Below, piece by piece: positions 329 to 44,100 of a stretch of 64,000 nucleotides of DNA (its first letter is position 1; the number at the start of each line of letters is the position of its first letter). The translations under genes and the position numbers were made by a program. Source of the DNA: Deltaproteobacteria bacterium (GTDB lineage: Bacteria; Myxococcota_A; UBA9160; SZUA-336); assembly GCA_031396695.1 (NCBI GenBank), contig JANNLG010000016.1:54494-118493 (forward strand). The letters are read 5' to 3'. The notes under the pieces are model-generated. The model ran no database searches. It had not been told where the DNA came from and was given only the letters and a program-made list of their open reading frames with translations.

Positions 329-1591
329 ATGTCGGACCCCGTCGCGCTCGAAGCTCCGCCCGCGCGCCCGCGCACGTTCGCGGCGCTGGGCGTGCCGAGC
401 TTCCGGGTGATGTGGGCGGGGACCTGGGCCTCGTACATCCCTTTCTTCATGGCGACCGTCGTGAACGGCGTGGTCGCGTTCCAGATCGCGCACGTGAACC
501 GCGCGGTCGGCACGGTGGTGTTCGCGCAGGGCGTGGCGATGGCCGCGCTCGCACCGCTCGGCGGCGCGGGTGCCGATCGCTGGCCCAAGCGGCGCGTGCT
601 GGTGGTGACGCAGCTCGCGGCAGCGGCGGTGTTCGGCGCGTTCGCGCTCCTGCTCGCGGCCGAGCGCCTCTCGATCGCCGCGCTCGCGGTGGGCTCGTTC
701 GTGCTCGGCGTCTCGATCTCCTTCCTCGGCCCGGCGCGCCAGGCGCTGGCCGCGGAGCTGGTCGGACCCGAGCTGCGCGGAAACGCGGTCGCGCTGAACC
801 AAGTTCCGCTCACGGGCTCTCAGGTGCTGGGTCCCGCGATCGCGGGGCTCCTGCTCACGTCTCCGTACGGTGCGACCGGCGCGTACGCGCTGATGAGCGC
901 GCTCTACGTCGCCGCGGCGATCTCGCTCGCGCCACTGCCGCCGTCGGTCGCGCGCACGAACGCCTCCGACACGCACGTGCTCGCGGATCTGCGCGACGGG
1001 CTCCGCTACGTCGCGACGCACCGGCGCCTGCGCCTGCTCGTGGGCTTCTTCGTGGGCGTGATCATGATGGGCTTCTCGTACATCACCGTGCTGCCGGGCC
1101 TGGTCGAGCACGCGCTCGAACGCTCGGCGGAAGCCGTGCCGACGCTGTTCTTCACGAGCGCCCTGGGCGGTCTTGCGGTCACGCTCGGCACCGCGCGGCT
1201 GGCGGACTCTCGCCGCGCGCTGCCGCTCTTCCTGGCCATGCCGTTCGTGTTCGCGGCGGGCCTCTTCGGCCTGTCCGCCGCGCCGTCGTACGCGCTCGCG
1301 GTCGCGAGCATGTTCGTGGTGGGCATGGGCTTCGGCGGCTTCCAGACCCTGAACGCGGCGGTGATCGTGCGCACGACCGAGCCAGCCTATCTCGGGCGCG
1401 TCTTCTCGCTCACCATGCTCGCGTTCGCGGGCGTCTCGCTGATGAGCCTGCCGGTCAGCGTGCTGGCCGACGCGATCGGCGAGCGCGTGACGCTGGCGAC
1501 GCTTTCCGGTGTGGTGGTAGGGATCGCGCTGTTCGTCGCGGTCGCGCTGCGTCGGATCGACCGTCCTCAGGCCAGCTCGACCGACACGTAG
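329..1591 (+). CDS. MFS transporter
   Basis: Twelve-helix-like hydrophobic profile and MFS-like loops in the 266..1591 ORF. Start is probably the second ATG at 329 (MSDPVALE...); 266 is an alternative. Confidence 0.6.
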   Translation: MSDPVALEAPPARPRTFAALGVPSFRVMWAGTWASYIPFFMATVVNGVVAFQIAHVNRAVGTVVFAQGVAMAALAPLGGAGADRWPKRRVLVVTQLAAAAVFGAFALLLAAERLSIAALAVGSFVLGVSISFLGPARQALAAELVGPELRGNAVALNQVPLTGSQVLGPAIAGLLLTSPYGATGAYALMSALYVAAAISLAPLPPSVARTNASDTHVLADLRDGLRYVATHRRLRLLVGFFVGVIMMGFSYITVLPGLVEHALERSAEAVPTLFFTSALGGLAVTLGTARLADSRRALPLFLAMPFVFAAGLFGLSAAPSYALAVASMFVVGMGFGGFQTLNAAVIVRTTEPAYLGRVFSLTMLAFAGVSLMSLPVSVLADAIGERVTLATLSGVVVGIALFVAVALRRIDRPQASSTDT

Positions 1592-1809
1592 CCGCGGTCG
1601 GGGATTTCGACGCGCAGATCGAAGCGGCCGGTGGCGCGGTCGTGCGCGAGCTCGGTCGGCTGCGCGGGATCGACGCTGCACGACGCGAGCGCGCGCGAGC
1701 AGAAGCCCGAGACCGCCCCACTCGACGCGCCACGAGCCATCCTCCGACGAGACGAGCGCGAGTCCGTCGGCCGAATCCAATCGCACGGTGTCTGCTAGCC
1801 TCGCACGCC

Positions 1810-2820
1810 GTGGAGCGTGTGCGCCGCGAAGCTTACGCAAGGGCGGGCTTGCTGGGAAATCCGTCCGACATCTACGGCGGCCGGGTGATCGCGCTTGCGC
1901 TCGCGAACTTCCGCGCGGAGGTCGCGATCGAGCCCGCCGGCGCGCTCGAGATCGTGCCCGGCGCGGACGATCGACTCAGCTATCCGAGCCTGCGCGAGGC
2001 CGCCGCCGCGCTCGACGCGTACGGCTGCGACGACGGCGTGCGACTGCTGCGCGCGAGCCTGCGCAAAGCGGTCGAGCTGCGCGGCGGGCTCGGCGACGTG
2101 GCGAGCGACGACCCGCGCCTGCGCTTCCGGATCTCGTACGCGACCGACATCCCGCGGCAGGTCGGCTTCTCGGGCTCGAGCGCGATCGTCACCGCGGCGC
2201 TGCGCGCGCTGTGCGACTGGTTCGGATTCCGGCTGGAAGGCGAAGCGCTCGCCGACGCTGCGCTCGCCTGCGAGACGGAGGAGCTCGGCATCACCGCCGG
2301 CCCGATGGACCGCGTGATCCAGGCGTTCGAGGGCCTCCTGTTCATGGATTTCTCCAAGCCGCGCACGGCCCGTTCCTTCCGCAGACTCGACCCCTCGAGC
2401 CTCCCGCCGCTGTTCGTGGCCTGGAATCCGCGCGGCGGCGCTCCGTCGCGCGCGGTTCATGGCGACATGCGCTCGCGCTATCTCGGTGGTGACACCGAGC
2501 TGCGACGCGTGATCGACGAGCTCGCGAGGCTCGCCGACGCGGGCCTGCGCTGTTTCGAGTCGGGCCACGCCGCGGAGCTGCTCCCGCTGATCGACCAGAG
2601 TTTTCAGGTCCGCGCGCGCGTGTTTCCGCTCGCCGAGTCCGACCGCGCGCTGGTGCGGATCGCGCGCGAGTCGGGCGCGGTCGCAAAGCTGTGCGGCTCC
2701 GGCGGCGCCGTGATCGGCGCGCTCCGCGACGGCGACGGCTGGTCGCGGCTCGAGACCGCGTTCGCCGCCTCCGGCTTCGCCGCGCAGCGCGTGCGGATCG
2801 CGGAGGCGAGCGCGCCATGA
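1810..2820 (+). CDS. GHMP-family sugar kinase
   Basis: C-terminal third of the 61..2820 ORF carries the GHMP motifs GNPSDIYGG (N-terminal) and GFSGSSAIVTAAL (ATP-binding), and ends CGSGGAVIG. Start (GTG 1810, GTG 1819 or TTG 1846) is uncertain. The stop overlaps the next gene's start (ATGA). Confidence 0.6.
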   Translation: MERVRREAYARAGLLGNPSDIYGGRVIALALANFRAEVAIEPAGALEIVPGADDRLSYPSLREAAAALDAYGCDDGVRLLRASLRKAVELRGGLGDVASDDPRLRFRISYATDIPRQVGFSGSSAIVTAALRALCDWFGFRLEGEALADAALACETEELGITAGPMDRVIQAFEGLLFMDFSKPRTARSFRRLDPSSLPPLFVAWNPRGGAPSRAVHGDMRSRYLGGDTELRRVIDELARLADAGLRCFESGHAAELLPLIDQSFQVRARVFPLAESDRALVRIARESGAVAKLCGSGGAVIGALRDGDGWSRLETAFAASGFAAQRVRIAEASAP

Positions 2821-3554
2821 AGGTGGTCCTGCTCTGCGCCGGCTACGCGACGCGGATGTATCCGCTGACGCGCGATCTGCCCAAGCCGCTGCTCGAGGTC
2901 GCGGGCGCGCCGATCCTCTCGCACCTGCTCGCGCGCACCGCGACGCTCCCCGGTGTCGACGAGGTCGTGGTGGTCGGCAACCACCGCTTCGCCGTGCCGC
3001 TGCGAGGCTGGGTCGAAAGTGCGCGAAGCCCCGTGCCGATCCGACTGCTCGACGACGGCTCGACCGACGAGTCGAATCGGCTCGGCGCGCTCGGCGACCT
3101 CGCCTTCGCCGCGCGCGAAGTGCCGCTCGCGGGCCACGACGCGCTGGTCGCCGCGGGCGACAACCTGGTGCTGTTCGACGTCGCGCCGCTCGCGCTCGCG
3201 TTCGCACGACGACGGGCGCCGCAACTTTCGACGCGCATCGCGCCCGCCGACTCGCGCAGCAGTCGTTATGGCGAGGTGACGGTCGACGCCAGTCGCCGCA
3301 TCACGCGCTTTCGCGAGAAGCCCGCGGACCCGCAGAGCGCGCTGGCCTCGATCGCGCTCTACTTCCTGCCCGCTCGCGCCTGGGAACTCCTCGACCGCTA
3401 TCTCGACGAGGGCGGGAATCGCGACGCACCCGGGTACTTCTTTGCCTGGCTGGTGAACCAGACGGAGGTCTACGCCGAGCCGATCGCCGGGCCGTGGTGG
3501 GACATCGGCGACCTCGACTCGCTCGCCGATGCGCGCGCGAACGCGACGCGCTAG
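2817..3554 (+). CDS. Sugar-1-phosphate nucleotidyltransferase (NTP-transferase family)
   Basis: N-terminus MKVVLLCAGYATRMYPLTRDLPKPLL is the classic G-x-G-T-R NTP-transferase signature. ATG 2817 overlaps the kinase's TGA. Confidence 0.65.
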   Translation: MKVVLLCAGYATRMYPLTRDLPKPLLEVAGAPILSHLLARTATLPGVDEVVVVGNHRFAVPLRGWVESARSPVPIRLLDDGSTDESNRLGALGDLAFAAREVPLAGHDALVAAGDNLVLFDVAPLALAFARRRAPQLSTRIAPADSRSSRYGEVTVDASRRITRFREKPADPQSALASIALYFLPARAWELLDRYLDEGGNRDAPGYFFAWLVNQTEVYAEPIAGPWWDIGDLDSLADARANATR

Positions 3555-3560
3555 CGCGTC

Positions 3561-4031
3561 TCAGCGCACGAGCGCCGCTCGCAGCGACTCGATCAGCGAA
3601 GCTCGATCGGCCGGCTCGAGCCGCGTCTCGAGCATCTCGCCGACGTTGCTGAGCCAGATCGGCGCGCCCCAGCGCGCGTCGCCGAGGTAGCGCGGCACGA
3701 CGTGGAAGTGCAGGTGCGGAACCACGTTCCCGAGCGACTCGAGGTTGATGTGATCGGGCCGAAGTGCGCGCATCAGCGCGCCCTGCGCAGCAAACAGGTC
3801 CGCGCAGAAACAAGCCCACTCCGTGGCCAAGAGCTGATCGGGACGCGCCGCGTGACGCGGATCGAAGATCAGCACGCACTGCCCGCGGTAGGTCTGGTTC
3901 TTCGCCAGGTAGAGCGAGGAGATCTCGAGCTGCGCGATCAGATCCCAAGCGTCGCTCACGTCCGGGCGAGGCGAGTCCAGCGCACACTCGACGCCGCGCA
4001 CGCTGCGCTCCCAGGCCTCTCGTTCCGACAC
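3561..4031 (-). CDS. HIT (histidine triad) family protein
   Basis: HLHFHVVPRY histidine-triad motif; 156 aa. Confidence 0.75.
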   Translation of the reverse strand: MSEREAWERSVRGVECALDSPRPDVSDAWDLIAQLEISSLYLAKNQTYRGQCVLIFDPRHAARPDQLLATEWACFCADLFAAQGALMRALRPDHINLESLGNVVPHLHFHVVPRYLGDARWGAPIWLSNVGEMLETRLEPADRASLIESLRAALVR

Positions 4032-4042
4032 GCGTTCCGCCG

Positions 4043-4909
4043 TCAGCTCGAGCCGGCTTCGATCAAGAGCGTCGGCACGCCGGGAATGCCCTTGTCGATG
4101 CTGAACACGCGGGTGCCGGCCTTGTGTCCGTCGCGCGTCGGTGTCGCCTCGAAGCCGGCCGCGACCAGGCGCGCGCGCGCCGCGTCGGCGTCAGGCACAC
4201 GCCACGCGAGGCCCCACAGGCGATCGCGCGCGGACGCATCGACCGGCGTCGAGAGCCGGCTGGCGACCTCGACCGTCACTCCGCCGACGCGGAAGAACAA
4301 CAGCCGCACGCCGCGCTGCTCGAAAGTGCGGTCGAGCGCGAGCCGCAAGCCGAGCTTCTCGCCGTAGAAGGCCCGAGTCGCCTCGACGTCCTGCGTGTTC
4401 ACCACGACGTGGTCGAGGCCGCTCGCGATCGAGTCCGTCGCTGCGAGCGGTTCGGCGACCGGCAGCGCGTCGGGTGGTGAGAGGTGTTCGATCGCGAAGA
4501 CGAGCGGTCCGCGCGACTCGTTCGGCGGCAGGATCACGTTTTTCCAGCTGCGCTCGTGCGGGCGCTCGGGGTCGCGTCCCGTGCCCGGCATCGGATCGGT
4601 CGGCGACAGGCCGCGGGCGCGCAGCTCGCGCGCGCATTCGTCGGCGTCGTCGGTGCCGAAGGCCAGGCCGATCAGGCCCTCGCCGTCGCTGTCGAGCCGC
4701 GCGCGCAGCATCGACGCGGTTCCGCCCTCGCCCGTCGGCCCGAGGAGCTCGAGGTAGGTGTTGTCGAGCCGGAACAGCGCGTTCGCGGTGCCCATGCCCG
4801 GGTGCGTGCCGCGCCACGAAGGCGCGCGGCCGAGCAGCGCGCTGAACGTCTTGGTCGAAGCGTCGAGATCGCGCACGCCGACGATCACGTGGTCGAGCGA
4901 GTGGAGCAT
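4043..4909 (-). CDS. VOC/glyoxalase family protein (two tandem domains)
   Basis: Two glyoxalase/bleomycin-resistance-like halves (HVIVGVRDLDAS..., LDHVVVNTQDVEATRAFY...). Confidence 0.65.
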   Translation of the reverse strand: MLHSLDHVIVGVRDLDASTKTFSALLGRAPSWRGTHPGMGTANALFRLDNTYLELLGPTGEGGTASMLRARLDSDGEGLIGLAFGTDDADECARELRARGLSPTDPMPGTGRDPERPHERSWKNVILPPNESRGPLVFAIEHLSPPDALPVAEPLAATDSIASGLDHVVVNTQDVEATRAFYGEKLGLRLALDRTFEQRGVRLLFFRVGGVTVEVASRLSTPVDASARDRLWGLAWRVPDADAARARLVAAGFEATPTRDGHKAGTRVFSIDKGIPGVPTLLIEAGSS

Positions 4910-4944
4910 GGTTCGAGGTTACCAGAATCGCCTCGGGCCTCGTG

Positions 4945-4963
4945 ATCCCAAGTTAATCCCAAG
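4945..4963. repeat. Direct repeat ATCCCAAG-tta-ATCCCAAG in divergent promoter region
   Basis: Seen directly, between the divergent VOC (4909, -) and S8 peptidase (5028, +) starts; 11-bp periodicity. Confidence 0.4.
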
Positions 4964-5027
4964 CTCGGGCCGTGGACCTTTGCCATGATCGTGTCGCGAT
5001 GTTCCATCGACCGCACGCTGCGCAGGC

Positions 5028-6713
5028 ATGACGACCGGCTACTACACCGCATCGCACGACTTCGTCCGGCTCGAGAAGCTGCCCTTCTCGCTGCGCGAGA
5101 TCGACGGCACGATCGTGGGCGAGCTCGGCGGGCGCGACTACGCGGCGATGTCGACCGCGCGCGTGATGCGCGCCGCGCAGACGTTCTTCGAGCTGCCCAC
5201 TCGGGGGATCGGCGGCGAGTCGCGTGTCGGACGCGCGCGCGTAGAGCCGGGCAATCTCGCCGCGCTGCTGGCGCGCAAGCCGATCGCGGTGTACGAGGAT
5301 TCCGACAGTGGCCTGCTGCGGATCCAGTATCGCGAGGTCGTGCTCCGCTTCAAGCCGGACACTTCCCTGAAGCGCAGGGTGGAGATCCTCGAAGCGTCCG
5401 GCCTGAGACTCCGCAGCCGGCATCCGCTGATTCCCGACCAGATCATCGCCTACGACGCCGAACGCCGTTTCTCAGGGGACGATCTCGTCAGCACGGCCGC
5501 GCGTCTGGCCGAGACCGACGGCGTCGTCTTCGCGACGCCGAACTTCGTGTCGCAGTACCGGCGCGACGCGCGACGAGGCGGCAGCCGGCCGCCACGCGGC
5601 CAATGGCACCTGCCGCTCGTGGGCGCGGCCGAAGCCTGGAAGACAACGCGCGGCAAGTCGGCGATCACGATCGCAATCGTCGACGACGGCGTCGACATCG
5701 CGCACCCGGACCTGCGCGCAAACATCCGCCGCCGGCCGGATCGGCACGAGCGGCGCGACCTGTACGGACGCGATTTCTTCCTGCGCGACACCGATCCGGG
5801 TCACTTCGATCCGCGCCCGAAGCGCTTCCGCGCGCCCTTCGGCCAGATGCGCGGCAACGACATCCACGGCACGTCCTGCGCGGGCGTCGCCGCGGCGCGG
5901 GGTCCGCACGTCTACGGCATCGCACCGAACTGCCGGATCCTGCCCGTGAAGGCCTTCCACGCCGACGACCTCGCCGCCGACGCGCAGGTTGCGGACGCGA
6001 TTCGCTACGCGGCGCTGCACGCCGACGTGCTGTCGTGCTCCTGGGACGGACCGCGCAGCCCCGATCTCGAGTTCGCGCTTCGCGACGCGATGGCGCTCGG
6101 TCGCAACGGCCGCGGCGCGATCGTGGTGGGCGCGAGCGGCAACGGGCGCGTCGCGCGCGTCGGCTACCCCGCATCCGATCCGAACGCGATCGCGGTCGGC
6201 GCGTCTACCGACAAGGACCTGCTGGCCTCGTACTCCAATCGCGGCGTGCAGGTCTGGGTCGTCGCGCCGTCGAACGGCGGAGAGCTCGGGGTCTTCACCA
6301 CCGACGTGAGCGCGGCGGGTCGCGGCTTCAACACGGGTACGCAGGTGGCGGGCGGCAGCGACGGGCTGTGCACGAACGACTTCGGCGGCACCTCGTCGGC
6401 CACGCCGCTGGTCGCCGGACTGTGCGCGCTCCTGCTGTCGATCGATGCGAAGCTCTCGCTCGCGCAGATTCGCGGCGTGCTCAAGTCGAGCTCGCGCAAG
6501 ATCGGCCCCGCTTCGGCGTACGACCCGAACGGTCATTCGACGAGCTACGGCTGGGGCCGACTCGACGCCGCGGCCGCGGTGGCGCTGGTCGCGGAAGCCG
6601 CCAAGGCGAAGCGCAAGCGCCCCGCCGCGAAGGCGAGAACGCAGCGCGCGACGGCTTCGCACGAGACTCGCGAGCTGCGCATTTCGGCGCGGCGCGCTGC
6701 GCCGAGGCGCTAA
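5028..6713 (+). CDS. S8 family serine peptidase (subtilase)
   Basis: Catalytic motifs IVDDGVDIAHPDL (Asp), HGTSCAGVAAA (His) and GTSSATPLVAG (Ser). No obvious signal peptide. Lys/Arg-rich C-terminal tail. Confidence 0.8.
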   Translation: MTTGYYTASHDFVRLEKLPFSLREIDGTIVGELGGRDYAAMSTARVMRAAQTFFELPTRGIGGESRVGRARVEPGNLAALLARKPIAVYEDSDSGLLRIQYREVVLRFKPDTSLKRRVEILEASGLRLRSRHPLIPDQIIAYDAERRFSGDDLVSTAARLAETDGVVFATPNFVSQYRRDARRGGSRPPRGQWHLPLVGAAEAWKTTRGKSAITIAIVDDGVDIAHPDLRANIRRRPDRHERRDLYGRDFFLRDTDPGHFDPRPKRFRAPFGQMRGNDIHGTSCAGVAAARGPHVYGIAPNCRILPVKAFHADDLAADAQVADAIRYAALHADVLSCSWDGPRSPDLEFALRDAMALGRNGRGAIVVGASGNGRVARVGYPASDPNAIAVGASTDKDLLASYSNRGVQVWVVAPSNGGELGVFTTDVSAAGRGFNTGTQVAGGSDGLCTNDFGGTSSATPLVAGLCALLLSIDAKLSLAQIRGVLKSSSRKIGPASAYDPNGHSTSYGWGRLDAAAAVALVAEAAKAKRKRPAAKARTQRATASHETRELRISARRAAPRR

Positions 6714-6794: not shown

Positions 6795-7100
6795 ATGGTT
6801 CAGCCGATGCCCGGGGATGCCCTCAGCCAGACCTTTGCCGCCCTCGCCGATCCGACGCGGCGCGCGATCCTCGCCCAGCTCGCGGCGGGCGATGCGTCGG
6901 TCACGGAGCTCGCCGCGCCGTTCGCGATGAGCCGGCCGGCGGTCTCGAAGCACCTGAAGGTGCTCGAGCGCGCCGGACTGATCGCGCGCGCGCGCGACGC
7001 GCAGTGGCGCCCGAGCCGACTCGAGGCGTATCTGCGCGAGCTGCAGAAGCCGTCCAAGCCCGTCGTCAGCAACGGGAAGAAGAATGTCCGCAAGCGCTAG
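6795..7100 (+). CDS. ArsR/SmtB family transcriptional regulator
   Basis: ALADPTRRAILAQLAAGDASVTELAAPFAMSRPAVSKHLKVLERAGLI helix-turn-helix. Confidence 0.8.
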   Translation: MVQPMPGDALSQTFAALADPTRRAILAQLAAGDASVTELAAPFAMSRPAVSKHLKVLERAGLIARARDAQWRPSRLEAYLRELQKPSKPVVSNGKKNVRKR

Positions 7101-7569
7101 CACCGCAGCCGCCGCGTCCGACCTCGAACTCGCGCTGACGCGGGTCTTCGACGCGCCGCGCGAGCTCGTCTTCGCCGCGTGGACACGAGCCGAGCACGCC
7201 GTGCACTGGTTCGCGCCGCACGGCTGCACGGTCACATCGTGCACCATGGGCCTGCGCGTCGGCGGCCCGTGGCGCTCGTGCATGCGCTGGCCGGACGGCA
7301 GCGACCACTGGCAGGGCGGCGAGTTCCGCGAGATCGTCCCGCCCGAGCGGCTGGTCTTCACGTACGCGTGGGAGGACGAGAACGGCCGACCCAAGCACGA
7401 GACGCTCGTGACGGTGCGGCTCGAAGCACGCGGCGCGCAGACCGCGCTCACGTTCCACCAGGCGGTGTTCGAGTCGGAGTCGTCGCGCACCTCGCACGGC
7501 GGCGGCTGGAACGGCTCGCTCGACGTGCTCGCTGAGTACCTGGCGAAGCGAACGGGGACGCGCACATGA
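7084..7569 (+). CDS. SRPBCC (AhsA1/activator of Hsp90 ATPase-like) domain protein
   Basis: Typical ArsR partner; LTRVFDAPRELVFAAWTRAEHAVHWF; overlaps arsR by 17 nt. Confidence 0.65.
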   Translation: MSASASTAAAASDLELALTRVFDAPRELVFAAWTRAEHAVHWFAPHGCTVTSCTMGLRVGGPWRSCMRWPDGSDHWQGGEFREIVPPERLVFTYAWEDENGRPKHETLVTVRLEARGAQTALTFHQAVFESESSRTSHGGGWNGSLDVLAEYLAKRTGTRT

Positions 7570-20584: not shown

Positions 20585-20660
20585 TCCCCGATAGCTCAGT
20601 TGGTAGAGCGGGTGGCTGTTAACCACTAGGTCGGCGGTTCAAGTCCGTCTCGGGGAGCCA
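20585..20660 (+). tRNA. tRNA-Asn (anticodon GTT)
   Basis: 76 nt with CCA: 7-bp acceptor stem TCCCCGA/TCGGGGA, D-arm GCTCAGTTGGTAGAGC, anticodon loop CTGTTAA (GTT), T-arm GGTTCAAGTCC. Closely resembles canonical bacterial tRNA-Asn. Confidence 0.85.
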
Positions 20661-38087: not shown

Positions 38088-38258
38088 GCTCGAATGAATC
38101 CTTTCCCGGCCGTCTCACCAACCGGCAACTCCACTAGTTGCACACGGCAAACGTTTCCACCCGACCGAGCGCCCCCCTAAACAGTCTTTGCTTCAACCCC
38201 GTCGTCCCCGACGCCGAAGCAGTGATGTCGGGGGGTTACCCCCCGGGGGAGAGCCGTT

Positions 38259-39248
38259 TTGGGGATCCGCGTCACTGCGCGGAACTGGATCGCGCGCTGC
38301 GCGCTGGCCGCTCTCTGCTTGCTCGCCGCCTCCGACGCGTTCGCGCTCGGCACGCCCGCGGGTACGGTCGTCACCAACACGGCGACCGTCACGTACGTGG
38401 TCGGCGCGAGCGCGTACACGCAGAGCGCGAACTCGGCTTTCACGGTCGACGAGCGCGTCGACGTCGTCGTCACCTGGCAGGACGCGGCGCCGGTAGCGGT
38501 CGCACCCGCGGACGTCGATCGGCTGCTCACGTTCCTGCTCACGAACGCGGGCAACGGCAACGAGGCGTTCGCGCTGGTGGTCGACGCGCTCGTGCTCGGC
38601 GACCAGTTCGATCCGACCAACGCGCGAGTCTACATCGACAGCAACGCTTCGGGCGTCTACGAGCCCGGCGTCGATCCGCTCTACGTGGCCGGCGTGAACG
38701 ATCCGCTGCTCGCCGCGGACGCCTCGCGGCTCGTGTTCGTGCTCGCCGACATCCCCCCGGCGACCCTGAACGGCGAGCGCGGCGACGCGGAGCTCGAGGC
38801 GACCTCGCTCAGCGGCGGCGTCACGGGCACGATCGTCGCGGGCGCCGGCGACGGCGGCACCGATGCGGTGATCGGCGGCGGCACTAGCGCCGTGATCGGC
38901 AGCTACCTCGTCTCGGATCTGTTCGTCTCGATCGCGAAGACCGCGGTCGTGACGGATCTCGGCGGCGGCGCCACGCCCGCGCCTGGCTCGACCATCACCT
39001 ACACGCTGGTCGTCACCCCGAACGGCACCGGCACGCTCGCGAACGTGGTGATCACGGACGCCTTGCCACCGTTCACCAGCTACGTCGCGGGCTCGCTGAC
39101 GCTCGACGCCGTCTCGCTCACCGACGCCGTCGACGGCGACGCGGGCGACTTCGGCGGCACCACCGCGAATCAAGTCACCGTCGCGCTAGGGAACGTGGCC
39201 GGCGGATCTCTCCCCCAGACAATCACGTTCGCAGTCACGATCGACTAG
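38259..39248 (+). CDS. Secreted DUF11 ('conserved repeat domain') protein
   Basis: TTG start (ORF track); signal peptide ARCALAALCLLAASDAFA; GTVVTNTATVTYVV motif; Thr/Val/Gly/Asp-rich beta-repeat composition. Confidence 0.55.
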   Translation: MGIRVTARNWIARCALAALCLLAASDAFALGTPAGTVVTNTATVTYVVGASAYTQSANSAFTVDERVDVVVTWQDAAPVAVAPADVDRLLTFLLTNAGNGNEAFALVVDALVLGDQFDPTNARVYIDSNASGVYEPGVDPLYVAGVNDPLLAADASRLVFVLADIPPATLNGERGDAELEATSLSGGVTGTIVAGAGDGGTDAVIGGGTSAVIGSYLVSDLFVSIAKTAVVTDLGGGATPAPGSTITYTLVVTPNGTGTLANVVITDALPPFTSYVAGSLTLDAVSLTDAVDGDAGDFGGTTANQVTVALGNVAGGSLPQTITFAVTID

Positions 39249-39259
39249 GAGGGAATGCC

Positions 39260-39754
39260 TTGAAACATGTAGTTGCTTTGGGTCTTTCGATTCTGCTCTT
39301 CGCTGAGAGCGCGCACGCGGTCGAAACCGCGGGAGACACCGCAGTCGAGATCAAGATCACGGCCGAGATAGAGGTCACGGTGAAGACCGCGGACGGGCGC
39401 GAGGAAGTGAAGCGCATGCCCGCGGCCAAGGTTCCGCCCGGCACGGCGGTGATCTACACGCTCAATGCGAAGAACACCAGTGCGGCGCCCGTGGCCGACG
39501 TGGTGATGACGGACCCGATCCCGGCCGAGATGGAGTACGTCGACGGCTCGGTCAGCGCCGCGGATGCGCGCGTCACGTTTTCCGTCGACGGCGGCAAGAG
39601 CTTCGCGACCAAGGAGTCCCTGAAGGTGAAGGGCGAGGACGGCGCGATGCGCGCGGCGCTCCCCGCCGACTTCACGCACATCCGTTGGCAGCTCGAGAAG
39701 CCGCTCGCGCCGGGCGAAGTCCGCGCGGTCAGCTTCCGTGCGCGCGTGGAGTGA
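39260..39754 (+). CDS. Small secreted DUF11-like protein
   Basis: Signal peptide MKHVVALGLSILLFAESAHA; PGTAVIYTLNAKNTS... single repeat domain. Confidence 0.55.
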   Translation: MKHVVALGLSILLFAESAHAVETAGDTAVEIKITAEIEVTVKTADGREEVKRMPAAKVPPGTAVIYTLNAKNTSAAPVADVVMTDPIPAEMEYVDGSVSAADARVTFSVDGGKSFATKESLKVKGEDGAMRAALPADFTHIRWQLEKPLAPGEVRAVSFRARVE

Positions 39755-39852
39755 TTGAGTGAGTTCCCCCCCCTGAAAAGGCGGAAGCGTCGGCACACGC
39801 TGCAGTGCCCGGTCGAGTTGAGTTGAGTTGGAAATACTGCAAGGAGAAGGCA

Positions 39853-40920
39853 ATGTTGAGGCATGACTTGAAACGATTGGCGAGTTCGCTCGCCGCCGCT
39901 GCGCTCTTGTGGAGCGCGGCGGACACCGCATCGGCCGTGGGCGCCGACGCGGGCATCACCGTCTCGAACACGGCATCGGTGGTCTACACCGTGAACGCCG
40001 TGCTTCAGCCGGCAGTGGCGAGCAACGCGGCCGACTTCGTCGTCGACCGCCTGGTCGATCTGACGGTGACGGCGATCGGGGTGACCTACACCTCCGTGAC
40101 GCCGGCGACGAACGGGGCGTTCCTGTTCTCGGTCGCAAACATCAGCAACGCCACCCTCGGGTTCAACCTGAGCGCGGCCAACAACGCGACGGATCCGTTC
40201 GGCGGCACCGACAACTTCGACCCGACTACGCTCACGGCGGTCGTCGATACGGGTGTCATCGGAACCTACGAGCCGGGCACCGACGTGGCGACCACGATGG
40301 ACACGGTCGCCGAGGACGGAACCTTCGGCGTGTGGATCGTCGCGGCGATCCCGGGCGGTCAGGGCAACCTCGACATCGCGGCGGTCACGCTGACCGCGAC
40401 GGCGCGCGAGCCGGGTATCGGCGGCGCGGCGCTCACCGAGGAAGTCAACCCGGAGAACCCGCTGGTCATGGAGACCGTGTTCGGCGACGGCGCGGGTGAC
40501 ACCGACGCGGTGCAGGACGCGGCCTTCTCGGACAGCGGCGCCTATCAGGTGGCTTCTGCGGACGTCACGATCACCAAGACCGAGACGCTGCTCAGCGACC
40601 CGATCAACGGTGCCGCGCCGAACGCACGCCACATTCCGGGTGCACTCGTCGAGTACGTGGTGACGGTCACCAACGACGCGGGCTCCGCGTTCCCCGCGAC
40701 CACGCTCACCATCAGCGACGTGCTGCCGGGTGACGTCACGTTCGCGCCGGATACGTACGGGATTGGCTCGGGCATCGACCTCGACGGCGCGCCGCAGACC
40801 AACGCGGCGGACTCGCCGACCGACGAGAGCTCGTTCGCAGCCGGAACGGTGACCGTGACCGTGCCGTCACTCGCAGCGGGCGCCTCTGCGGTCATCACCT
40901 TCCAGGTGACGGTGAACTAG
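39853..40920 (+). CDS. Secreted DUF11 repeat protein
   Basis: ATG 39853 preceded by AAGGAGAAGG; signal peptide LAAAALLWSAADTASA; GITVSNTASVVYTV motif; paralogous to 38259..39248. Confidence 0.55.
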   Translation: MLRHDLKRLASSLAAAALLWSAADTASAVGADAGITVSNTASVVYTVNAVLQPAVASNAADFVVDRLVDLTVTAIGVTYTSVTPATNGAFLFSVANISNATLGFNLSAANNATDPFGGTDNFDPTTLTAVVDTGVIGTYEPGTDVATTMDTVAEDGTFGVWIVAAIPGGQGNLDIAAVTLTATAREPGIGGAALTEEVNPENPLVMETVFGDGAGDTDAVQDAAFSDSGAYQVASADVTITKTETLLSDPINGAAPNARHIPGALVEYVVTVTNDAGSAFPATTLTISDVLPGDVTFAPDTYGIGSGIDLDGAPQTNAADSPTDESSFAAGTVTVTVPSLAAGASAVITFQVTVN

Positions 40921-41138
40921 CCACCGGCTAGCTCTCGATGGTGAGCCCCCTCCCCCCAGTGCCGCGGCACGTCGAGTGCCCGCGCGCCGGCCTACATGGC
41001 GGCGCGACGGGAGACTTGCGTTCGCGCACCGGGAACGGGCGCTCACCGGACCGCGACCATGCGGTTCGCACGTTGTGCCTCAACGAACCGGCTGCGACGG
41101 GAAAGCCCCGCCGCAGCCGGTTCCGCGAGGCGCTGGTG

Positions 41139-44100
41139 ATGCTCGCGCTCACCGTGCTTCTGTTTCCGTTCAGCGCACGCGCGCAGACACCCGCGGGCAC
41201 GCCGATCCCGAACACGGGCTACGCGACCTACGACATCGGCGCCACCACCGGAATCGTCCGGCCGTCGAACACGCTGGTCATCACGACCGCCGCGTTCGGA
41301 ACCAGTTCGAGCCTGGAGTTCATGCGCTATGCGCCCGGCGCTCCCGGCTCGATCACCTACGCCGTCTCGCCCACGCAGTGCTTCACGGGCGGATCGTTCA
41401 GCGCCCTGCCCGCGCCCACCGCGTACGGCGGCGGCGTGATCAACCTGGCCAACGTCGAGCTCGAGCTCACGTCGAGCTACCACCCGGGTGAGCCGGTCTT
41501 CGTGCGGCTGGTCGACGCGGATCAGAACCTGAATCCCGCGCTCGCCGAATCGATCCTGGTCACGCTCGCGACACCGAGCGTCGCGGACGTCGAGCAGCTG
41601 CAGCTCTTCGAGACTGGCGTGAACACGGGCATCTTCGTCGGCTACGTGCCCACGGCGGCGCCACCGGCGCCGGCGAACGACTGCGTGCTCGCCGCTCCGT
41701 CGGGTCAGACCGTCACCGGCAGCTACACCGATGCGAGTAACGCCGCGGACACCGATACCGACAGCGCGCTGATCGACCCCGAGAGCCGGGTCTTCGACAG
41801 CACGAACGGCTCGCCGGTCGACGGCGCGACCGTGACCCTGATCGACGACGCCACCGGACTGCCCGCTGCGGGCATCCTCGGCGACGACGGTCTCTCCGCC
41901 TTCCCCGCCACGCTCACCAGCGGCGGCTCGGTCACCGATGGCGGCGGGCAGATCTACAACTTCGGCCCGGGCGGCTACCGCTACCCGGTCGTTCCCGCGG
42001 GCAGCTATCGACTGCAGGTGACGCCGCCCGCCGCGTACACGTTCCCGAGCGGTGTGGCCGACGCCACGCTGCAGACCTTGCCCGGCGCACCGTTCGCGCT
42101 CGCGCTCGGCTCGCGCGGCGAAGTCTTCGCCGTGCCGGTCGGTCCGACCTTCCAGCTCGATCTGCCGGTCGACACCGCGTCGGGCTTCGGCTTCATCTCG
42201 ATCGACGCCAGCCGCGACGTGGTCTCGCTCGGCGAGCACTTCCAGTTCGACGTGCGCGTCGAAAACCCGGGCGTGCTCGGAGCGCCGCTCGGCGTCGACG
42301 TGACCGTCGTATTGCCGCTCGGCATCCGCTTCCTGCCCGGCAGCGTGCGCATCGACGACGGCAAGCAGCCCGATCCGGTGATCTCGCCGGACGGCCGCAC
42401 CCTGACCTGGACGCTACCCGCGAGCGCGCTCCCCGTCGTGACACACATCCGGTTCACCGTGAAGGTCGGGCCGAGCGCCGAGATCGGCCTCACGCGCACC
42501 ACCGCGCGCGCGCAGGCGCTGGGCGGAACGAGCACCGAGGACGCCGTCGCCACGGTGCGGGTCGTCGAGGACCTGGGCGCGAACAACTCCTACATCCTCG
42601 GCCGCGTTTCCGAGGGCGCCTGCGACACCGACGACTTCGGCGGCAAGGGCGTTTCGGGCGTGCGGGTGTACCTCGAGGACGGCTCGTTCTCGATCAGCGA
42701 CTCGAACGGCTACTACCACTTCGCCGGCGTCGTTCCCGGCGCGCACGTGGTGCAGATGGACGTGCAGAGCCTGCCCGGCTTCTACGAGCCGCTGCCGTGC
42801 GCGAAGGACGAAGGCCAGGCCTTCGCCGGCCGGCCGTTCTCGCAGTTCGTCGAGATGCAGGGCGGAACGATGTGGCGCAGCGACTTCCGTGTGCAGATGC
42901 GCGCGCGCGCGCAGGGCGGCATCAGCCAGCGGCTCGAGAGCCAGCTCGTCGGCGACACCATCCACTATCAGCTCGCGCTGCGCGGCAACGGCGTGGCCGT
43001 GCGCAATGCGCGTGCGATGGTGATGCTGCCCGAGGGCGTCCAGTTCGTGCCCGGCAGCACGCGCGACGCGGGCGCGCCGATGGCGGATCCCGAGTTCAAG
43101 GACGGCGTGCTCGTCTACCGGCTCGGCGAACACACCGAAGACAACTGGACGCTGGATCTCACGTTCGATGCGAAGCCCACGGGCCCGAGCGAGCGCCAGC
43201 TCGAGACGTCGTCCGTGGTGATGTTCGAGACGCCGGTCGAGAAGATCGGCAGGACGCCCGTCGCGAAGACGTTCCTTTCCGGCGAGTCGAGCTCGGGCAG
43301 CGGCATCCAGGTGGTCGAGACGCTCGGCCTGCGGCCGGGTGAGGATTGGAACTCGGTCACGACGCCCGCACCCGACGTCACGCCCGTGAAGCCCAGGGTG
43401 TTCAACAAGGCCTGGCTCGAGCAGGCGCAGCCGGGCTTTGCGTGGCTGTCGCCCGAGCCGGGCTTCGCCGCCGCGATCGCGAGCGTGAACATCGCCATTC
43501 AGCACGCGCCCGGCACCACACTCGAGCTGACGCAAAACGGCGTCGCGGTGCCCAAGTTCAACTTCGAGGGCGAGTTCTCCAACAACGCCAAGACCGTCTC
43601 GCTGTCGCGCTGGCGCGGCGTGGATCTGGTCGACGGCGAGAACGCCTTCGTGGTGCGCGCGCTCGACGCGCAGGGCAACGAAGTCGAGCGCTTCGAGCGC
43701 GGGCTTCACTTCGCCGGTCCGCCGTTCCGTGCCGAGCTCGTGCCCGAGCTCTCCAAGCTGGTGGCCGATGGCACCACGCCGCCGGTGATCGCCGTGCGCT
43801 TCACCGACGAGGACGACAAGCCCGCGCGCGAAGGACAGGTCGGCACGTTCCAGGTCGAGGCACCGTACCGCCCGAACCTCGAGCCCGCGCTGCGCGAGCT
43901 GAAGCGTCAGGCGGGCCAGCCGCCCGAGTTGCCGAGCTACGCGATCGGTCAGGACGGCATCGCGCTGATCGAGCTCGCGCCCACCACCACTTCCGGACGC
44001 GTGAACCTCCGCTTCGCGCTGGCCGGCAACCACGAGAAGAAGCTCCACCCCTGGCTCGAGGCGACCGCGCGCGAGTGGGTGCTGGTCGGCCTGACCGGTG

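Follow-up and report, generated by a model that had tools for sequence, protein, structure and literature searches.

A well-known type of two-step pathway turns a sugar into its 1-phosphate and then into an NDP-sugar. [quoted passage not shown] In zebrafish and Xenopus, a GlcAK-family kinase and a bacterial-type nucleotidyltransferase (NTase) of about 260 aa are joined in one protein, DrGKUP, with the NTase preceding the kinase; the glucuronokinase activity of the zebrafish protein is proven, and its pyrophosphorylase domain was nearly inactive in vitro (PMC3938481). Bacteroides FKP, a fusion of about 950 aa with an N-terminal NTase, likewise combines a GHMP anomeric kinase with an NTase to make an NDP-sugar for salvage, and is specific for GDP and L-fucose. 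Separate kinase and NTase genes that make NDP-sugars from free or phosphorylated sugars are found in HddA/HddC, GalK/GPUT (Solitalea canadensis) and AmgK/MurU; AmgK is not a GHMP kinase. The literature searched contained neither a characterised bacterial GlcAK nor a characterised bacterial route from free glucuronate to UDP-GlcA that bypasses UDP-glucose dehydrogenase.

The gene pair described here is an ordinary yet uncharacterised bacterial example of this pathway type. It lies in a 64,000-nucleotide stretch (the window) of contig JANNLG010000016.1 from a Deltaproteobacteria bacterium (assembly GCA_031396695.1). Whereas the plant kinase has an unlinked USP of about 600 aa and broad specificity as its partner, the window kinase is followed by what appears to be a dedicated, translationally coupled bacterial NTase of 245 aa. 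DrGKUP can be seen as the fused counterpart, by its published description (PMC3938481), with the order reversed: the window has kinase then NTase, as separate genes. Its kinase also differs in subfamily from those of HddA/HddC, GalK/GPUT and AmgK/MurU.

Layout of the Gene Pair

The features of the locus are as follows.

1810 to 2820, plus strand: predicted GHMP-superfamily sugar kinase, GlcAK family clade A (336 aa, GTG start, TGA stop)
2802 to 2806, plus strand: Shine-Dalgarno-like GGAGG, 10 nt before the NTase start codon and within the 3' end of the kinase frame (read from the sequence; putative function)
2817 to 2820, plus strand: ATGA stop/start overlap (NTase ATG 2817-2819, kinase TGA 2818-2820)
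2817 to 3554, plus strand: predicted short sugar-1-phosphate nucleotidyltransferase (245 aa, ATG start, TAG stop)
3561 to 4031, minus strand (4031 to 3561): HIT-family gene, convergent neighbour, judged to lie outside the module (156 aa)

The three reading frames and the overlap are placed just as the initial annotation had them. In the sequence GCGCCATGAAGG at 2812-2823 the kinase and NTase genes overlap by 4 nt, and the kinase start at 1810 agrees with the N-termini of aligned homologues. GC3 is 0.85-0.90 in the kinase, NTase and HIT frames, similar to that of neighbouring genes. A promoter and terminator scan of positions 1400-5200 gave no signal above chance, and a tRNA was the sole Rfam match in the window.

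Among about 35 window genes scanned, which lie outside approximately 24.7-29.3, 32-35 and 55-57 kb, there were no glycosyltransferase, exosortase/PEP-CTERM or uronate-metabolism genes, and checks of the neighbourhood found no gene for making or using GlcA near the pair. The idea that the product feeds a surface-glycan/PEP-CTERM system thus found no footing, either beside the pair or among the genes scanned. Related loci include L001, in a Myxococcota MAG (85% identical, with overall synteny), and L083 (67% identical). An MFS gene at 266-1591 was considered as a sugar importer and rejected, as it is EntS/efflux-like, lies 218 nt off and is not beside the pair in L001.

The Kinase

The kinase has the N-terminal domain, the phosphate-binding motif II and the glycine-rich motif III of the GHMP superfamily. 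Its translation carries AGLLGNPSDIYGGR, PRQVGFSGSSA and KLCGSGGA, it matches PF00288 (GHMP_kinases_N) at E 7e-13 (49 bits, cut-off 22.3), and its AF2 model (pLDDT 88.5) has the GHMP fold, with a Foldseek probability of 1.0. Within the superfamily, it is homologous from end to end to Arabidopsis GLAK1, the comparison sequence being an exact match to Q93ZC9 (36% identity, 179 bits, E 4e-58), and this lies well above its similarity to other GHMP subfamilies: the best equivalog model outside GlcAK in NCBIfam reached no more than 37.6 bits, with HddA at 37.6 against a cut-off of 600, mevalonate kinase at 35 against 163 and galactokinase at 23 against 443. PDB entries for HddA gave a local match of only 80 residues. 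The plant and window enzymes have the motif set GNPSD / PRQxGxSGSSA / GSGGA in common, and the GlcAK N-terminal signature (V/A)G(F/L)LGNPSD(V/I)Y is present in the kinase and invariant across the homologue alignment A1. The Lilium GlcAK peptide VGFLGNPSDVYFGR (PMC2823444) is matched by the N-terminal AGLLGNPSDIYGGR of the kinase, and one member of the kinase's 90% cluster bears the JGI label 'glucuronokinase'. Further along, GPMDRVIQ lines up with the galactokinase stretch CGIMDQFI, which we take to be the site of the catalytic Asp. Judged by its sequence, the kinase is assigned to a sugar-1-kinase family, that of glucuronokinase, and not to the mevalonate, homoserine or other non-sugar GHMP kinases; tree and HMM scores agree in this placement, which the initial annotation had left to be made.

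The family has two clades, which were resolved in a neighbour-joining tree (Poisson distance, 200 bootstraps) with Arabidopsis GlcAK (AtGlcAK) as its sole characterised sequence. Clade A unites the window kinase with those of NTase-paired loci and with the fusions in 195 of 200 bootstraps (97.5%). AtGlcAK groups with clade B in 190 of 200 (95%) and with clade A in 0 of 200, so that the window kinase, unlike plant GLAK1, stands in the sister clade to that of the characterised enzyme. Identity to AtGlcAK is 33-39% in clade A against 40-48% in clade B. In the alignment, 52 columns are at least 90% conserved in both clades and 4 are clade-specific; the latter include M166 (Q in the other clade, a Q-to-M/L change), which adjoins the predicted catalytic Asp. 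The NTase partner also differs by clade, being the window NTase family in clade A and a GalU-type uridylyltransferase in clade B.

The Nucleotidyltransferase

The downstream protein begins with MKVVLLCAGYATRMYPLT and matches PF00483 (NTP_transferase) at E 9e-27, aligning with positions 1-242 of the 245 in the profile. Its signature loop reads AGYATR, where GGxGTR is usual, and the residues G9, T12, R13, K23, D115, N116, E167, K168, P169 and D229 are invariant in the family alignment, so that the catalytic residues are intact. Its AF2 model (pLDDT 94.3) has a Rossmann-like fold, and Foldseek against the PDB returned GalU, RmlA and GMPPA/B folds (TM 0.76-0.86, identity at most 26%). Both the Pfam match and the modelled fold identify it as a putative sugar-1-phosphate nucleotidyltransferase, and it does not fall among the non-sugar nucleotidyltransferases, in keeping with the initial annotation.

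None of the NCBIfam equivalogs RmlA, GalU, AglF, HddC, MurU, GlmU and ManC was matched above its curated cut-off. The best scores were those of Arch_glmU (70 bits, cut-off 292) and AglF (61, cut-off 400), the rest being lower, with MurU at 46 against 250 and HddC at 30.7 against 300. Taken with the HddA score of the kinase, the last of these places the pair outside HddA/HddC.

Likeness to FKP was part of the initial annotation, which called the pair split and FKP-like. The genes are indeed separate and coupled, but a split of this kind is not unusual, since bacteria normally encode the two steps separately, and specific similarity to FKP was not detectable: the pair is neither one polypeptide nor headed by an NTase, and an FKP-annotated chain appeared neither in phmmer searches of PDB sequences (E<=1) nor in the Foldseek top 50. 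The relation of the window pair to FKP is best described as one of analogy, not membership.

Linkage and Fusions in Relatives

Across Myxococcota, Gemmatimonadota, Sumerlaeota and Spirochaetes, 15 of the 20 clade A loci have the NTase gene directly 3' of the kinase gene. A script found the 4-nt NTGA overlap in 12 of these 15 paired loci, and the addition of L001 by eye brings the count to 12-13 of 15. Fusions of the kinase and NTase, of about 550 aa, fall into 119 or more 90%-identity clusters, mostly from Planctomycetota (more than 100), and 41 full-length fused loci were seen in metagenomes. Those of Planctomycetota (e.g., P0320 and P0437) combine the two families in the order seen in the window, belong to clade A and, as single polypeptides, differ from the two genes of the window; P0437 is 38% identical to the window kinase and 44% identical to the window NTase. 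A conserved Gfo/Idh/MocA sugar oxidoreductase often adjoins these fused loci, unlike the window, which has none beside the pair. Profile and fusion-query searches for eukaryotic NTase-GlcAK fusions returned prokaryotic fusions and one record labelled Hyaloraphidium (a fungus), in the order kinase then NTase.

The recurrence of adjacency, 4-nt overlap and natural fusion in other phyla is more than chance, and, read from the sequences, the kinase and NTase appear to form a conserved, translationally coupled unit that is fused in many Planctomycetota. Clade B homologues are paired with GalU-type NTases in 49 loci, which shows that the logic of a kinase plus a pyrophosphorylase holds family-wide. 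The window NTase family is in addition fused to classical galactokinases (P0368 and P0282), so that its use is not confined to GlcA. When 85 ORFs lying up to 2.5 kb from clade A pairs were classified with Pfam, no partner recurred, and the commonest family, TetR, accounted for 4 of the 85.

Proposed Pathway and Alternative Readings

Taken together, the pair probably makes a nucleotide-sugar from a free sugar, of which glucuronic acid is the likeliest candidate. By homology, the GlcAK-family kinase would transfer phosphate from ATP to the anomeric C1-OH of the free sugar, most likely D-glucuronic acid, giving the sugar-1-phosphate, and the NTase would join this to an NTP, most likely UTP, with the release of pyrophosphate and the formation of an NDP-sugar such as UDP-GlcA. 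The overlapping stop and start codons would hold the two proteins at a fixed proportion. The inferred role of the pair would be to recover free uronic acid for the making of glycan precursors, for which UDP-glucose dehydrogenase would not be needed. That a translationally coupled two-gene module takes a sugar through its 1-phosphate to an NDP-sugar, with D-GlcA and UDP-GlcA the likeliest substrate and product, is in our judgement somewhat better than an even chance. The salvage pair proposed in the initial annotation is largely upheld by the identity of 36% to GLAK1, the conserved linkage and the fusions: the kinase falls with sugar-1-kinases, the NTase is of the sugar type and the unit is conserved.

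Two other readings would change the make-up or the chemistry of the module, and both appear very improbable. The HIT gene had been put forward as a partner that might hydrolyse or transfer nucleotide-sugars or nucleotide by-products. It encodes a HIT superfamily protein by its intact histidine triad (HLHFHVV) and fold (PF01230, E 3.5e-6; best PDB match 2oik, an uncharacterised HIT protein, E 4e-15), HIT enzymes act on nucleotide conjugates, and its stop codon is only 6 nt from the convergent stop of the NTase. Against a place in the module, it adjoins the pair in just 1 of 80 related loci, that of L001, is absent within 8 kb of the pair in L083 and is missing from the 25 commonest families around clade A pairs. 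It is encoded on the strand opposite to the pair and begins 11 nt after a VOC/glyoxalase gene (4909-4043, minus strand), an arrangement that points to co-transcription of the two; we place the HIT gene outside the kinase/NTase module. Just as implausible is a non-sugar pair, in which the kinase would act, like mevalonate, homoserine or pantoate kinases, on a hydroxy-acid or alcohol that is not a sugar, and the NTase would activate a non-sugar. One NCBI homologue record is titled 'mevalonate kinase family protein', and mevalonate kinases are the top PDB folds for the kinase model in Foldseek, at 15-20% identity, but this ranking is uninformative and confirms the superfamily fold without separating GHMP subfamilies, because the PDB has no close GlcAK-family chain (best match in a sequence search, 36 bits). 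The match to GlcAK at 179 bits, compared with 35 for mevalonate kinase, speaks against such a pair, as do the fusion of the NTase family to galactokinases and the end-to-end PF00483 match of the NTase, whose IspD match is sub-threshold (18.8 bits against 27) and confined to the first 57 residues.

A weightier alternative keeps the same two steps and changes the sugar: clade A kinases could use one other than D-glucuronate (e.g., GalA, another uronic or neutral sugar, or a rare sugar), and the product of the AGYATR NTase would then not be UDP-GlcA, a possibility that we regard as real if rather doubtful. Counted against the favoured reading were the split between clade A and AtGlcAK, the different NTase family, the M166 change, the near-inactivity in vitro of the DrGKUP pyrophosphorylase domain and the lack of a nearby GlcA gene. 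Clade A is the well-supported sister of the clade with the characterised enzyme, its NTase partner is unlike that of clade B, so that sugar or nucleotide could differ, and the clade-specific change adjoins the predicted catalytic Asp. The NTase family also partners galactokinases, its unusual AGYATR loop is compatible with various nucleotide preferences, and the Gfo/Idh/MocA gene beside fused Planctomycetota loci hints at further sugar chemistry. Opposed to this are the conserved motif residues, nearly all of which are common to AtGlcAK, the strict specificity for GlcA of all assayed members of the wider family (PMC3938481, PMC2823444), and the absence of a positive pointer to any particular other sugar. 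Should the alternative hold, which seems unlikely, clade A kinases and AGYATR NTases would make up an undescribed, non-glucuronate nucleotide-sugar route, fused and flanked by Gfo/Idh/MocA in Planctomycetota, that would occur widely in Myxococcota, Planctomycetota, Gemmatimonadota, Sumerlaeota and Spirochaetes.

Annotation and Broader Meaning

Homologues of the two proteins go by a variety of names, with 'GHMP kinase', 'mevalonate kinase family protein' and 'nucleotidyltransferase family protein' at NCBI, and 'glucuronokinase' for the kinases and 'glucose-1-phosphate thymidylyltransferase' for the NTases at JGI. On the strength of the linkage and the fusions, kinase and NTase merit a common annotation that is more specific. 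The coupled bacterial pairs and the natural fusions readily suggest themselves as a source of one-enzyme catalysts from sugar to NDP-sugar. If the favoured reading, UDP-GlcA made from free glucuronate, is true, many environmental bacteria would bypass UDP-glucose dehydrogenase on the way to a central glycan precursor.

The gene pair

Three open reading frames make up the region of interest in the window, which has a G+C content of 70%:

1810-2820 (+): kinase, GTG 1810 to TGA 2820, 336 aa; AGLLGNPSDIYGGR and PRQVGFSGSSA present in the translation
2817-3554 (+): nucleotidyltransferase (NTase), ATG 2817 to TAG 3554, 245 aa; translated N-terminus MKVVLLCAGYATRMYPLT
3561-4031 (-): HIT protein, read from 4031 to 3561, 156 aa; HLHFHVV present in the translation

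The stop of the kinase and the start of the NTase overlap in an ATGA at 2817-2820, visible in the string GCGCCATGAAGG, and a GGAGG precedes the NTase ATG by 10 nt. The kinase start at 1810 agrees with the aligned N-termini of homologues (M-x-x-V-R-R-E-A-Y-A-R-A-G). GC3 is 0.85-0.90 in all three frames and similar in the flanking genes. Pfam assigned the kinase to GHMP_kinases_N (E 7e-13), the NTase to NTP_transferase (PF00483, E 9e-27, matched end to end) and the third product to the HIT family (E 3.5e-6). The initial annotation, a coupled kinase/NTase pair beside a HIT gene, was thus borne out in its reading frames, overlap and families.

A kinase of the glucuronokinase family

With Arabidopsis glucuronokinase 1 (AtGlcAK) as the query, an exact match to UniRef100_Q93ZC9 by look-up, BLASTP aligned the kinase over its whole length at 36% identity (179 bits, E 4e-58). 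Its N-terminal motif also agrees with the peptide VGFLGNPSDVYFGR, sequenced from purified Lilium glucuronokinase (PMC2823444). No NCBIfam equivalog came near its cut-off, with HddA at 37.6 bits vs 600, mevalonate kinase at 35 vs 163 and galactokinase at 23 vs 443. The AtGlcAK similarity, the Lilium motif and these low scores together argue that the kinase is a member of the glucuronokinase family, broadly defined, and not one of the non-sugar GHMP kinases, in keeping with the sugar-type enzyme first proposed. Many of the 3,716 homologues found in the database search are labelled "glucuronokinase" by JGI, as is one member of the kinase's own 90% cluster; names at NCBI are only "GHMP kinase", "mevalonate kinase family protein" and "nucleotidyltransferase family protein". 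In a profile alignment to the galactokinase domain, GPMDRVIQ lies opposite CGIMDQFI, the stretch in which GalK structures have the catalytic Asp. A GHMP fold is seen in the AF2 model (pLDDT 88.5). Among PDB sequences, nothing was nearer than an 80-residue local HddA match. Since the PDB holds no close glucuronokinase-family chain, Foldseek could not separate the GHMP subfamilies, and its matches were mevalonate kinases, galactokinases and heptokinases, all at ≤20% identity.

A neighbor-joining tree (64 sequences, 200 bootstraps, galactokinase domains as the outgroup) set the glucuronokinase family apart from the outgroups in 200/200 replicates. Within it, clade A (the window kinase, the NTase-paired loci and the fusions) was recovered in 195/200 and clade B (AtGlcAK and bacteria whose kinase is paired with GalU) in 190/200, while no replicate (0/200) joined clade A to AtGlcAK. 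Clade A sequences are 33-39% identical to AtGlcAK, against 40-48% for those of clade B. Fifty-two alignment columns are ≥90% conserved in both clades and only four are clade-specific (A/B: W137/F, A148/P, M166/Q, W205/Y), M166 adjoining the catalytic Asp. By sequence, then, the window kinase is a well-conserved sister of the plant-enzyme clade, not an AtGlcAK orthologue.

The nucleotidyltransferase

The AF2 model of the NTase is very confident (pLDDT 94.3) and superposes on GalU, RmlA, GMPPA/B and tlr0611 with TM 0.76-0.86 and ≤26% identity (Foldseek). It fell below every NCBIfam equivalog cut-off, the best being Arch_glmU (70 bits vs 292) and AglF (61 vs 400). The catalytic residues G9, T12, R13, K23, D115, N116, E167, K168, P169 and D229 are invariant in the 26 family members compared, and the signature loop reads AGYATR in place of the canonical GGxGTR. 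A profile search of 1.8 billion representatives returned 1,050 relatives at E < 1e-30. Among four proteins examined (P0368, P0282, P0265, P0257), the family was also seen fused to classical galactokinase in either domain order, joined to an N-terminal domain resembling a P-loop ATPase, and in tandem duplication.

Linkage and fusion

Relatives of the kinase were scanned in one genome per species, giving 80 loci in two groups. The closest group comprises 20 loci at 41-85% identity, from Myxococcota, Gemmatimonadota, Sumerlaeota and Spirochaetes. The same short NTase lies directly downstream in 15 of these 20, and the kinase stop and NTase start overlap by 4 nt (A/G/T-TGA) in 12 of the 15. The same overlap was read by eye in the closest relative, an 85% identical Myxococcota MAG (L001). 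Compared with the window, the L001 NTase gene has 2 nt deleted (L001:9110-9125); this breaks the tblastn match across two frames and reflects either a pseudogene or a mistake in the assembly.

The remaining loci belong to Cytophagales (including Dyadobacter), Planctomycetota, Acidobacteriota and others, and in 49 of them a GalU-type uridylyltransferase of ~293 aa adjoins the kinase on the same strand, upstream or downstream. These 49 fall among L016-L080 (for example L063:2043-2924 (+)). The clade B kinase and this UTP-sugar-1-phosphate uridylyltransferase form a second bacterial kinase/pyrophosphorylase pairing, distinct from the first and apparently uncharacterised.

Fusions among the relatives from the NTase profile search run from glucuronokinase-like kinase to AGYATR NTase (P0269, P0320, P0278), from NTase to classical galactokinase (P0368) and from a galactokinase-like protein to NTase (P0282). 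A search with P0320 found at least 119 clusters of ~550-aa kinase-NTase fusions with both Pfam domains, the named ones from Planctomycetota and Phycisphaerales, and a further 41 full-length fused loci came from metagenomes. One fusion, P0512, is 55% identical to the Planctomycetota proteins but was deposited, on a 590-kb scaffold, as a protein of the fungus Hyaloraphidium curvatum; contamination or horizontal transfer could account for it.

A conserved 393-aa Gfo/Idh/MocA oxidoreductase (L082:6776-7954 (-), with orthologues in L081 and L084-L130) lies ≤3.5 kb from the fused gene in 19 of the 41 full-length Planctomycetota fused loci. It is directly divergent from the fusion (~47 nt) in seven loci and directly downstream on the same strand in L110. 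The oxidoreductase matches no NCBIfam equivalog (iolG, 49 bits vs 355), occurs neither in the window nor at the split clade A loci, and may catalyse a third step on the sugar or NDP-sugar.

The proposed pathway

Conserved adjacency and translational coupling, together with abundant fusions, are strong genomic evidence that kinase and NTase catalyse successive steps. The best-supported reading is that an anomeric sugar kinase would form a sugar-1-phosphate, which the coupled NTase would turn into an NDP-sugar. This two-step salvage core, as initially annotated, stood up on the families, the conserved linkage, the 4-nt overlap and the fusions.

For the substrate, conversion of D-glucuronate to UDP-GlcA is the leading candidate. 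It leads because the assayed members of the wider kinase family are all strictly GlcA-specific (PMC3938481, PMC2823444), because zebrafish DrGKUP offers a precedent in which a short bacterial-type NTase is fused with a glucuronokinase (PMC3938481), and because the partner of clade B kinases is a uridylyltransferase. A less probable but serious rival is that the two steps would act on a different sugar or nucleotide: as the window kinase is a sister of the plant-enzyme clade and not an orthologue within it, the sugar cannot be assigned confidently.

The HIT gene and the surrounding genes

The convergent HIT hydrolase, first suggested as a functional add-on, was rejected as part of the module. 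A HIT homologue occurs near the pair in only one of 80 loci, L001, where the glyoxalase and MFS genes are shared as well. In the 67% identical L083, the overlapping pair is present with no HIT gene within 8 kb, and is differently placed relative to BipA and 2-hydroxyacid dehydrogenase. The window's HIT gene starts 11 nt downstream of the minus-strand gene at 4043-4909, which encodes a two-domain VOC/glyoxalase-like protein (Glyoxalase_3 and Glyoxalase_4), an order conserved in L001; the two genes (4043-4909 (-) and 3561-4031 (-)) are probably one operon. The best structural relatives of the HIT protein are uncharacterised structural-genomics HIT proteins.

A neighbor census found no recurrent family around clade A loci. 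The ~35 window genes scanned are general metabolism and housekeeping, including dehydrogenases, acyl-CoA synthetase, PrpD, SufBD, BipA, an S8 peptidase, an ArsR regulator, P450, MoeA, aldehyde:ferredoxin oxidoreductase and arginine decarboxylase; among them, the idea that the product feeds a PEP-CTERM/surface-glycan system found no support. Other features of the window are:

6795-7569 (+): ArsR-type HTH regulator overlapping the start of an AHSA1/SRPBCC-domain gene (7084 vs 7100)
20585-20657 (+): single tRNA gene (Rfam 68.9 bits) overlapping a DUF1015 ORF in its annotated start region
38226-46640 (+): two DUF11-repeat proteins, then a 1,902-aa ORF with only a weak CarboxypepD_reg match

ArsR-type regulators and AHSA1/SRPBCC small-ligand-binding proteins are a common pair. 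Given the tRNA overlap, the true DUF1015 start lies further downstream. The last region is possibly a large surface-protein cluster, unrelated to the kinase/NTase pair.

Relation to known systems

The pair works like FKP and HddA/HddC, in each of which a kinase and an NTase yield an NDP-sugar, but it belongs to neither family; of the "FKP-like" label, the working logic therefore holds and the family membership does not. GalK/GPUT (PMC11267548) and plant GlcAK/USP work in the same way. The literature search turned up no publication characterising a bacterial glucuronokinase or the AGYATR NTase family, and the pair is an uncharacterised instance of an already known pathway type. For specialists, the points of interest are the two bacterial glucuronokinase clades, each tied to its own type of NTase, the large family of Planctomycetota fusions and the unusual AGYATR signature of the NTase.
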